Shown here: piece after piece, positions 29,958 to 30,092 of the stretch
Layout of the letters: the number at the start of each line of letters is the position of its first letter
How positions within the stretch are numbered: the stretch's first letter is position 1
Assembly: GCF_003019035.1 (NCBI RefSeq)
Contig: NZ_CP027447.1
DNA from: Escherichia coli
GTDB lineage: Bacteria; Pseudomonadota; Gammaproteobacteria; Enterobacterales; Enterobacteriaceae
Strand: one strand, 5' to 3'
Length of the DNA: 64,000 nt
Position numbers and translations under genes: made by a program
Notes under the pieces: generated by a model
Database searches by the model: none
What the model was told of the DNA's origin: nothing
Seen by the model: the letters and a program-made list of their open reading frames with translations, nothing else

Positions 29958-30092
29958 TTATCTCCTGACGCCTGGGCAAAAAAAAGCCCCTCGATTGAGG
30001 GGCTGGGAATGGGTGATCAACGGGAAGAAAAACGGCAGACCAGCGTCTTTTTTCAGACGCGGTAAGACAAAATGTCGAACACACTGAACCAT
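29958..30092 (-). CDS. pyrL: pyrBI leader peptide PyrL (44 aa)
   Basis: Peptide MVQCVRHFVLPRLKKDAGLPFFFPLITHSQPLNRGAFFCPGVRR read from the sequence; internal start within the 66-aa track ORF. Confidence 0.8.
   Translation of the reverse strand: MVQCVRHFVLPRLKKDAGLPFFFPLITHSQPLNRGAFFCPGVRR
29976..30005 (-). terminator. pyrBI attenuator terminator
   Basis: On the minus strand, GCCCCTC-AATCGA-GGGGC hairpin followed by a run of 8 T, just upstream of pyrB. Confidence 0.7.

Follow-up and report, generated by a model that had tools for sequence, protein, structure and literature searches.

The window analysed here, a 64,000-nucleotide stretch of Escherichia coli DNA, carries on its minus strand the genes for both chains of aspartate carbamoyltransferase (pyrB and pyrI) and, directly 5' of them and on the same strand, a short leader ORF (pyrL) surrounded and overlapped by the elements listed in Table 1. 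The gene order (mgtA, ridA, pyrI, pyrB, pyrL, yjgH, bdcA, bdcR) is that of K-12. The pyrL stop codon, TAA (29960..29958), lies 3 nt 5' of the pyrB ATG (29954), and the Shine-Dalgarno sequence (SD) of pyrB, AGGAGA (29966..29961), is situated directly 5' of this stop codon.

Table 1. Coordinates of the pyrL leader elements and of the regulated genes within the window.
Feature	Position	Strand	Description and basis
-10 box TATAAT	30118..30123	minus	Direct reading; invariant in 47/47 aligned Enterobacteriaceae leaders
AATTTG, initially transcribed region	30105..30110	minus	Equals the published pyrBI start region (PMC7039003, PMC6524683)
pyrL Shine-Dalgarno GGGAGG	30097..30102	minus	4 nt 5' of ATG; near-invariant in 74 leaders
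pyrL	29958..30092	minus	44-codon leader ORF plus TAA stop; translation, PF08052, NF007587
Upstream hairpin	30040..30062	minus	CCGCGUCU-GAAAAA-AGACGC-U-GG, within pyrL; proposed pause hairpin
U/C-rich tract	30019..30033	minus	GUUUUUCUUCCCGUU, codons Pro-Phe-Phe-Phe-Pro-Leu; 6 nt beyond the upstream hairpin
Attenuator	29978..30004	minus	Intrinsic terminator hairpin (30004..29985) plus 8-U run (29985..29978)
pyrB	29019..29954	minus	Aspartate carbamoyltransferase catalytic chain, 311 codons; TIGR00670, 419.7 bits; first regulated gene
pyrI	28545..29006	minus	Aspartate carbamoyltransferase regulatory chain; TIGR00240, 243.5 bits; second regulated gene

Elsewhere in the window, a 153-aa ORF (27564..28025, minus strand) between mgtA and ridA encodes a protein with an HTH_Tnp_1 domain (36 bits) at its N terminus and a C-terminal half that is hydrophobic. 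This ORF is absent from K-12, where the gap between mgtA and ridA is ~205 nt, and occurs in 442 of 5426 E. coli genomes, labelled "transposase"; it appears to be an insertion that varies between strains and whose annotation is doubtful. As expected for E. coli, mgtA (24823..27519) has a magnesium riboswitch in its leader (RF01056, 24614..24729, plus strand, 125.8 bits). Further RNA features on the plus strand comprise a strong match to RF02850, "Yersinia sRNA 276" (antisense class), at 42473..42667 (182 bits; gathering score, 100), a match to naRNA4, a REP-derived nucleoid-associated RNA, at 8202..8278 (61.6 bits, barely over the threshold of 59.5), and a tRNA-Leu(CAA) gene, presumably leuX, at 53640..53724.

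An earlier note, made from the sequence, had placed the PyrL leader peptide at 29958-30092, and this interval proved to be exactly pyrL with its stop codon, located on the minus strand. It spans the ORF only; the promoter, reiterative-transcription site and 5' untranslated region (UTR) lie outside it, at 30093..30123. Translation of the interval gives MVQCVRHFVLPRLKKDAGLPFFFPLITHSQPLNRGAFFCPGVRR* (44 codons followed by TAA). The peptide matched the Pfam model PF08052 (PyrBI_leader) across residues 1-44 of 44 with 117.1 bits (cut-off 25) and the NCBIfam model NF007587 (pyr operon leader peptide) with 120.1 bits (equivalog cut-off 61), placing it in the curated PyrL family by both models, and its location directly 5' of pyrB-pyrI, with all three genes on the minus strand, is that of a PyrL. 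Aligned with K-12 pyrL, the peptide is identical to b4246 (NP_418667.1). A search of complete E. coli genomes with a 261-nt leader query showed that the leader is present in 5424 of 5426 (median one copy per genome), and the best matches were 100% identical and carried the RefSeq labels "pyrL: pyr operon leader peptide" and "pyrB".

The minus strand reads TATAAT, GCCGGAC, AATTTG, CC, GGGAGG and ATGT before the pyrL start codon (ATG, 30092), and the literature places the transcription start at the A at position 30110 (PMC7039003, PMC6524683). The spacer that follows the -10 box (GCCGGAC, 30117..30111) is G+C-rich, which fits the stringent control reported for the pyrBI promoter (PMC6524683, PMC6245113). 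Upstream, the -35 region is weak (TTGCGC, 30145..30140, 3/6 consensus matches), and because of this poor -35 the pyrBI promoter was not picked up by a consensus promoter scan; its assignment hence rests on the -10 box, the published start sequence and conservation. Across the pyrB loci of 80 Enterobacterales species (described below), a -10 box followed by a T-run start motif was found in 79, with a spacing of 7 nt in 78 and 8 nt in one, and the motif was not found in one Yersinia locus (L078). The motif is AATTTG in 65 of these species, GTTTTG in six, GATTTG in five and CGTTTG in three, always with at least three T's and then a G. A run of at least three T's in the non-template strand, directly following the start nucleotide and suitably spaced from the -10 box, is the sequence feature of promoters subject to reiterative transcription (the class of pyrBI, codBA, upp and carAB P1), and the promoter in the window is predicted to belong to this class. 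At high UTP, RNA polymerase is reported to slip on the three T's of AATTTG and to release AAUUUU(n) transcripts (PMC7039003), and reiterative transcription reduces productive initiation about 7-fold according to PMC6524683, which cites Liu, Heath & Turnbough 1994.

Sequence upstream of the promoter is polymorphic in E. coli, given that the -35 region of the window and K-12 type (window 30124..30141, GCCGCTTCTGACGATGAG) is unrelated to the CCCACTTTCTGGCTGAG of E. coli E69 (L003) and E. albertii (L004), and that in 228 of the 5424 E. coli genomes the match spans <80% of the 261-nt query.

The earlier note had also described a GC-rich hairpin followed by eight U's that overlaps the leader ORF upstream of pyrB, and both sequence and folding bear this description out. 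The terminator hairpin, A-GCCCCUC-AAUC-GAGGGGC-U, is located inside pyrL and comprises eight pairs (six G-C) and a 4-nt loop, and the first U of the 8-U run is able to close the stem. Folded alone, it reaches -15.9 kcal/mol; 200 dinucleotide shuffles gave -5.7 ± 2.25 kcal/mol, and not one of them was as good (0/200; z = -4.53). When the 171-nt leader is folded as a whole (-55.9 kcal/mol, z = -2.8), the terminator stays an independent hairpin. A consensus scan of 2.5 kb identified five terminator-like sites, of which the pyrL hairpin is the strongest. A stretch of 23 nt separates the end of the U run from the pyrB ATG. This intrinsic terminator thus overlaps the leader ORF 5' of pyrB, as an attenuator does, and the E. 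coli leader ORF covers the entire hairpin, bringing it within reach of a translating ribosome.

Chance origin of the hairpin is excluded by its conservation (80/80 species and 5424/5426 E. coli genomes). A search of 28000..32000 against Rfam 15 with permissive thresholds returned no family at threshold. Rfam has no pyrL or pyrBI leader family among its models, and the lack of a hit at the leader is therefore no argument against the assignment. Two sub-threshold hits on the opposite strand, Chlorobi-1 (24.5 bits against 50) and Hrs1 (21.6 bits against 56.4), were rejected as chance matches to the hairpin.

Conservation was assessed by using PyrB as a query to retrieve the pyrB loci of 80 Enterobacterales species (L002-L081), including members of Escherichia, Citrobacter, Salmonella, Klebsiella, Raoultella, Enterobacter, Kosakonia, Cedecea, Buttiauxella, Serratia, Yersinia, Rahnella, Pantoea and Mixta. 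All 80 species have a hairpin of the GCCCCUC...GAGGGGC type followed by 7-9 T's upstream of pyrB. Among 47 aligned Enterobacteriaceae leaders, 98.4% of the cells in the terminator stem are paired, with the loop-closing pair changed from C-G to U-A in 13, and Cedecea and Buttiauxella have G-C in place of A-U as the outermost pair; both changes are compensatory. The leader ORF runs into the hairpin or beyond it in 78 of the 80 species. Its stop codon is in the terminator loop or 3' arm in 49 species (the form with 33-34 codons, as in Salmonella, Citrobacter, Klebsiella and Enterobacter), past the U tract but short of the pyrB ATG in 12 (the E. coli form) and within pyrB in 17; in the other two species, it lies ~21-23 nt before the U run, where the footprint of the terminating ribosome is still within reach.

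The peptide itself is conserved in part. The N-terminal 25 residues of PyrL (MVQCVRHxVLPRLKxDAGLPFFFPL) are well conserved in Enterobacteriaceae. Beyond FFFPL, frame, length and sequence vary freely across the 80 species, and the leader peptide ranges from 29 to 56 aa, in addition to one of 95 aa (L047) and one open fusion to pyrB (L065). Serratia, Yersinia, Rahnella and Pantoea retain the RNA elements but have a peptide that is hardly recognisable. Given a varying peptide and an ORF that reaches the hairpin, the conserved trait is therefore the bringing of a ribosome to the terminator, not the peptide, and the pattern of stop codons fits a mechanism in which the position of the ribosome, and not the peptide, matters.

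Two departures from the usual arrangement were seen. In Pluralibacter gergoviae ATCC 33028 (L065:1342-1900), the leader ORF continues in frame into pyrB, uninterrupted by a stop codon (...GFFLPWRQEIDMANPLYHKH...), and a ribosome reading through would therefore yield an N-terminally extended PyrB. In Yersinia aldovae and Y. artesiana (L078, L079), the attenuator is 186-187 nt from pyrB, compared with the usual ~22 nt, owing to an inserted element, which we take to resemble an ERIC/IRU repeat (...CCCCAGGAGCTTACACAAGT...GGGGTGAGCG...GCAGCTTGAAGTATGACGGGT).

A second hairpin lies upstream in pyrL and is followed by the U/C-rich tract. The upstream hairpin folded alone at -12.7 kcal/mol (z = -3.33), and 97.3% of its cells are paired in the 47 Enterobacteriaceae leaders, with two pairs changed on both sides. 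Other genera have different stems at the same place (CGUCGUCU/AGACGACG, CGCCUG/CAGGCG, CACCUG/CAGGUG, ACUGCC/GGCAGU and GGCAG/CUGCC). An automated search for the upstream hairpin in a fixed window made unconvincing picks in Yersinia (L078, L079) and Rahnella (L080), which cannot be counted as absence. The 28 nt past this hairpin contain, on average, ~10.4 T's and ~19.4 pyrimidines (69 distinct leaders).

By analogy with the literature, the U/C-rich tract would be the region of UTP-sensitive RNA polymerase pausing. Such pausing in the U-rich tract is described in PMC3641672 and in PMC9291695, where Donahue & Turnbough 1994 is cited. The role of RNA structure is disputed, as a recent in vitro study placed a pyrL pause ~24 nt upstream of the classical site, independent of NusA and of the hairpin, and considered pyrL pausing unlikely to depend on RNA structure (PMC9291695). 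We infer a role in pausing for the upstream hairpin, which that study contests. Nonetheless, the presence of a hairpin that is genus-specific in its stem and yet conserved argues, from comparison of the leaders, for some function, despite the in vitro results.

The pyrimidine-rich tract may also interact with the start of the leader transcript. The pyrL 5' UTR and SD (UGCCGGGAGGA, 30106..30096) are complementary to the tract and the bases that follow it (UUCUUCCCGUUG, ~30030..30018; both on the minus strand), and the complementarity persists throughout Enterobacterales. In minimum free energy (MFE) folds, the SD region (UGCCGGGAGGAAG in most species) is paired with the pyrimidine tract and the next bases (UUUUCUUCCCGUUGCA), with a predicted duplex energy of -9 to -18 kcal/mol across 68 distinct leaders. 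In an alignment of 74 sequences, 91% of cells pair, compared with 51-76% for slid partners, and three of the 12 pairs have changed on both sides, for example in Serratia (CAGGAGAAA/UUUCUCCUG) and in Yersinia and Edaphovirga (GGGAGA/UCUCCC). The pairing is suggestive only, because the composition of a purine-rich SD and a pyrimidine tract explains much of it. Hence, the predicted helix may represent either sequestration of the SD or an effect of composition. It is possible, though we consider it rather unlikely, that the pairing is selected and constitutes an undescribed layer of control, in which the tract, once transcribed, would sequester the ribosome-binding site of the leader. If so, only early-loading ribosomes would follow the polymerase, and terminated leader transcripts would not be retranslated. 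The literature searched yielded no description of such a pairing.

Other explanations for the hairpin and the ORF were also considered. Terminator-like sites are common (five against 2.9 expected in 2.5 kb) and short ORFs are abundant (82 of at least 20 aa in 5 kb), so that the hairpin and U tract could be a plain terminator of an upstream or convergent gene that a fortuitous ORF happens to overlap. However, yjgH, the closest same-strand gene upstream, ends at 30373, ~370 nt away and beyond the pyrBI promoter. Read on the plus strand, the hairpin has UGGGAAUGG after it, without U's, and no plus-strand gene converges on it. The position of yjgH and the missing plus-strand U tail effectively refute a terminator of a neighbouring gene, and a fortuitous ORF would neither fit the curated PyrL models with 117 and 120 bits nor keep its register with the hairpin across 78 of 80 species, which makes this explanation extremely improbable.

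The other two alternatives concern how the leader would act. Classical leader peptides signal via runs of regulatory codons (PMC3641672), and PyrL does contain a run of three Phe codons, at which stalling could select between RNA structures as in amino-acid-sensing attenuators of the trp, his or phe type. Yet the terminator is independent in the MFE fold, with no competing antiterminator pairing, and a ribosome stalled at FFF would be ~35 nt 5' of the hairpin, where it would favour termination, not relieve it. Moreover, the regulated genes serve the synthesis of pyrimidines, not phenylalanine, and what is conserved is the U/C-rich tract as nucleotides, not the Phe run as peptide (for example, LPLFLLLL in Serratia, VSFRQ in Mixta and Pantoea, AVFPL in Mangrovibacter); sensing of phenylalanine is thus hardly credible here. 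Similarly, conservation of the N-terminal 25 residues within Enterobacteriaceae would be expected if PyrL were itself active, be it as a regulatory micropeptide or, in the manner of TnaC or SecM, as a nascent-chain arrest peptide. This conservation, however, coincides with nucleotide elements (the upstream hairpin and the U-rich tract), and the C-terminal part varies in length, frame and sequence among the 80 species. Serratia, Yersinia, Rahnella and Pantoea, in turn, share almost no peptide but keep the RNA elements, and we regard an active peptide as highly implausible.

The interpretation of the region as the pyrL leader and pyrBI attenuator is supported by the PF08052 and NF007587 scores, the RefSeq annotation, identity to K-12, the downstream pyrB and pyrI genes and folding, in agreement with the earlier note. 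The direct observations comprise the elements and how they fold, identity to K-12, and conservation, to which belongs an ORF running into the hairpin, and the sequence holds nothing contrary to this reading. We estimate at about 97% the probability that 29958..30092 comprises this leader and attenuator, with UTP-set reiterative transcription and transcription-translation coupling controlling pyrBI. For the strain studied here, we infer the UTP response of termination and readthrough from the near-identity of its leader to the K-12 element.

Several published results describe how such a leader works. Tight coupling of transcription and translation over pyrL prevents formation of the terminator, which is suppressed by the ribosome, according to PMC5021804 (citing Roland, Liu & Turnbough 1988), and the requirement for tight coupling is likewise stated in PMC4824070 (citing Roland et al. 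1988). Under loose coupling, the pyrL hairpin cut expression of a downstream reporter about 18-fold (PMC5021804). The terminator has been described as lying within a 135-bp leader gene and as not repressed at normal UTP, with pause sites that couple translation to transcription (PMC4824070). PMC3641672, citing Turnbough & Switzer 2008, presents a short ORF with an overlapping uridine-rich stretch as an arrangement in which the UTP level shifts coupling.

With UTP dependence, pausing, ribosome masking and reiterative transcription taken from the literature, the leader in the window would operate as follows. Transcription would start at AATTTG downstream of TATAAT. At high UTP, the polymerase would slip on TTT and release AAUUUU(n), leaving fewer productive transcripts, and any polymerase that escaped would cross the U-rich leader without pausing, far ahead of the first ribosome; the GC-rich hairpin and the 8-U tract would then terminate transcription 23 nt short of pyrB. 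At low UTP, initiation would be productive and the polymerase would pause in the U/C-rich tract past the upstream hairpin, allowing the ribosome that translates pyrL to close the gap behind it. This ribosome would cover the 5' arm of the terminator as it emerges, such that no hairpin would form and the polymerase would read through into pyrB and pyrI.

The element is an ordinary pyrL/pyrBI attenuator of the K-12 type and as such already known. The pyrBI attenuator of K-12 was reportedly characterised in the primary papers of Turnbough, Hicks & Donahue (1983) and Roland, Liu & Turnbough (1988), and pyrBI attenuation is said to be reviewed by Turnbough & Switzer (2008). In E. coli K-12 MG1655 (NC_000913.3; pyrL b4246, pyrB b4245), the 44-aa PyrL is identical, and the -10 box, AATTTG, SD, upstream hairpin core, U-rich tract, terminator, 8-U tract and spacing to pyrB are the same. 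Between the end of yjgH and the start of pyrB (441 nt), the window differs from MG1655 at two single bases. One is an A/G difference ~190 nt 5' of pyrL, and the other is a change from GGC to GGT in a synonymous Gly codon (window 30039), with which an extra A-U pair is possible at the base of the upstream hairpin. Hence, the value of the assignment for this strain lies in correct annotation only, as the element shows no departure from K-12. The element recovered is nonetheless a classic case of gene regulation that needs no repressor protein: the UTP-dependent speed of the polymerase and its coupling to the leading ribosome determine transcription of the pyrimidine-synthesis genes.

Leaders of Salmonella, Citrobacter, Klebsiella and Enterobacter (33-34 codons) have the same promoter, start motif, SD, upstream hairpin and U-rich tract, with a terminator of 8-9 U's situated 18-22 nt from pyrB. 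A TGA or TAA codon in the terminator loop, 8 nt 5' of the U run, ends their ORF, whereas the E. coli ORF passes through the hairpin and ends 3 nt before the pyrB ATG.

Comparable logic is found in the E. coli pyrE attenuator (the rph-pyrE intercistronic terminator), which is UTP-sensitive via transcription-translation coupling. As in pyrBI, a closely following ribosome blocks an intrinsic terminator, and coupling is set by the UTP-dependent speed of the polymerase. The "leader" of pyrE, however, is the end of the full-length rph gene and not a dedicated 44-codon ORF, and it lies at another locus and is unrelated in sequence. The attenuators of amino acid operons (trpL, hisL, pheL, thrL and leuL) likewise have a short leader ORF, a terminator before the first structural gene and a synchronising pause (PMC4824070, PMC9291695). 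They sense charged tRNA by stalling of the ribosome at regulatory codons and switch between antiterminator and terminator, whereas no alternative antiterminator hairpin was seen in the MFE structure of the pyrBI leader. Instead, the pyrBI leader would sense UTP via the speed of the polymerase, and the ribosome itself would block the terminator.
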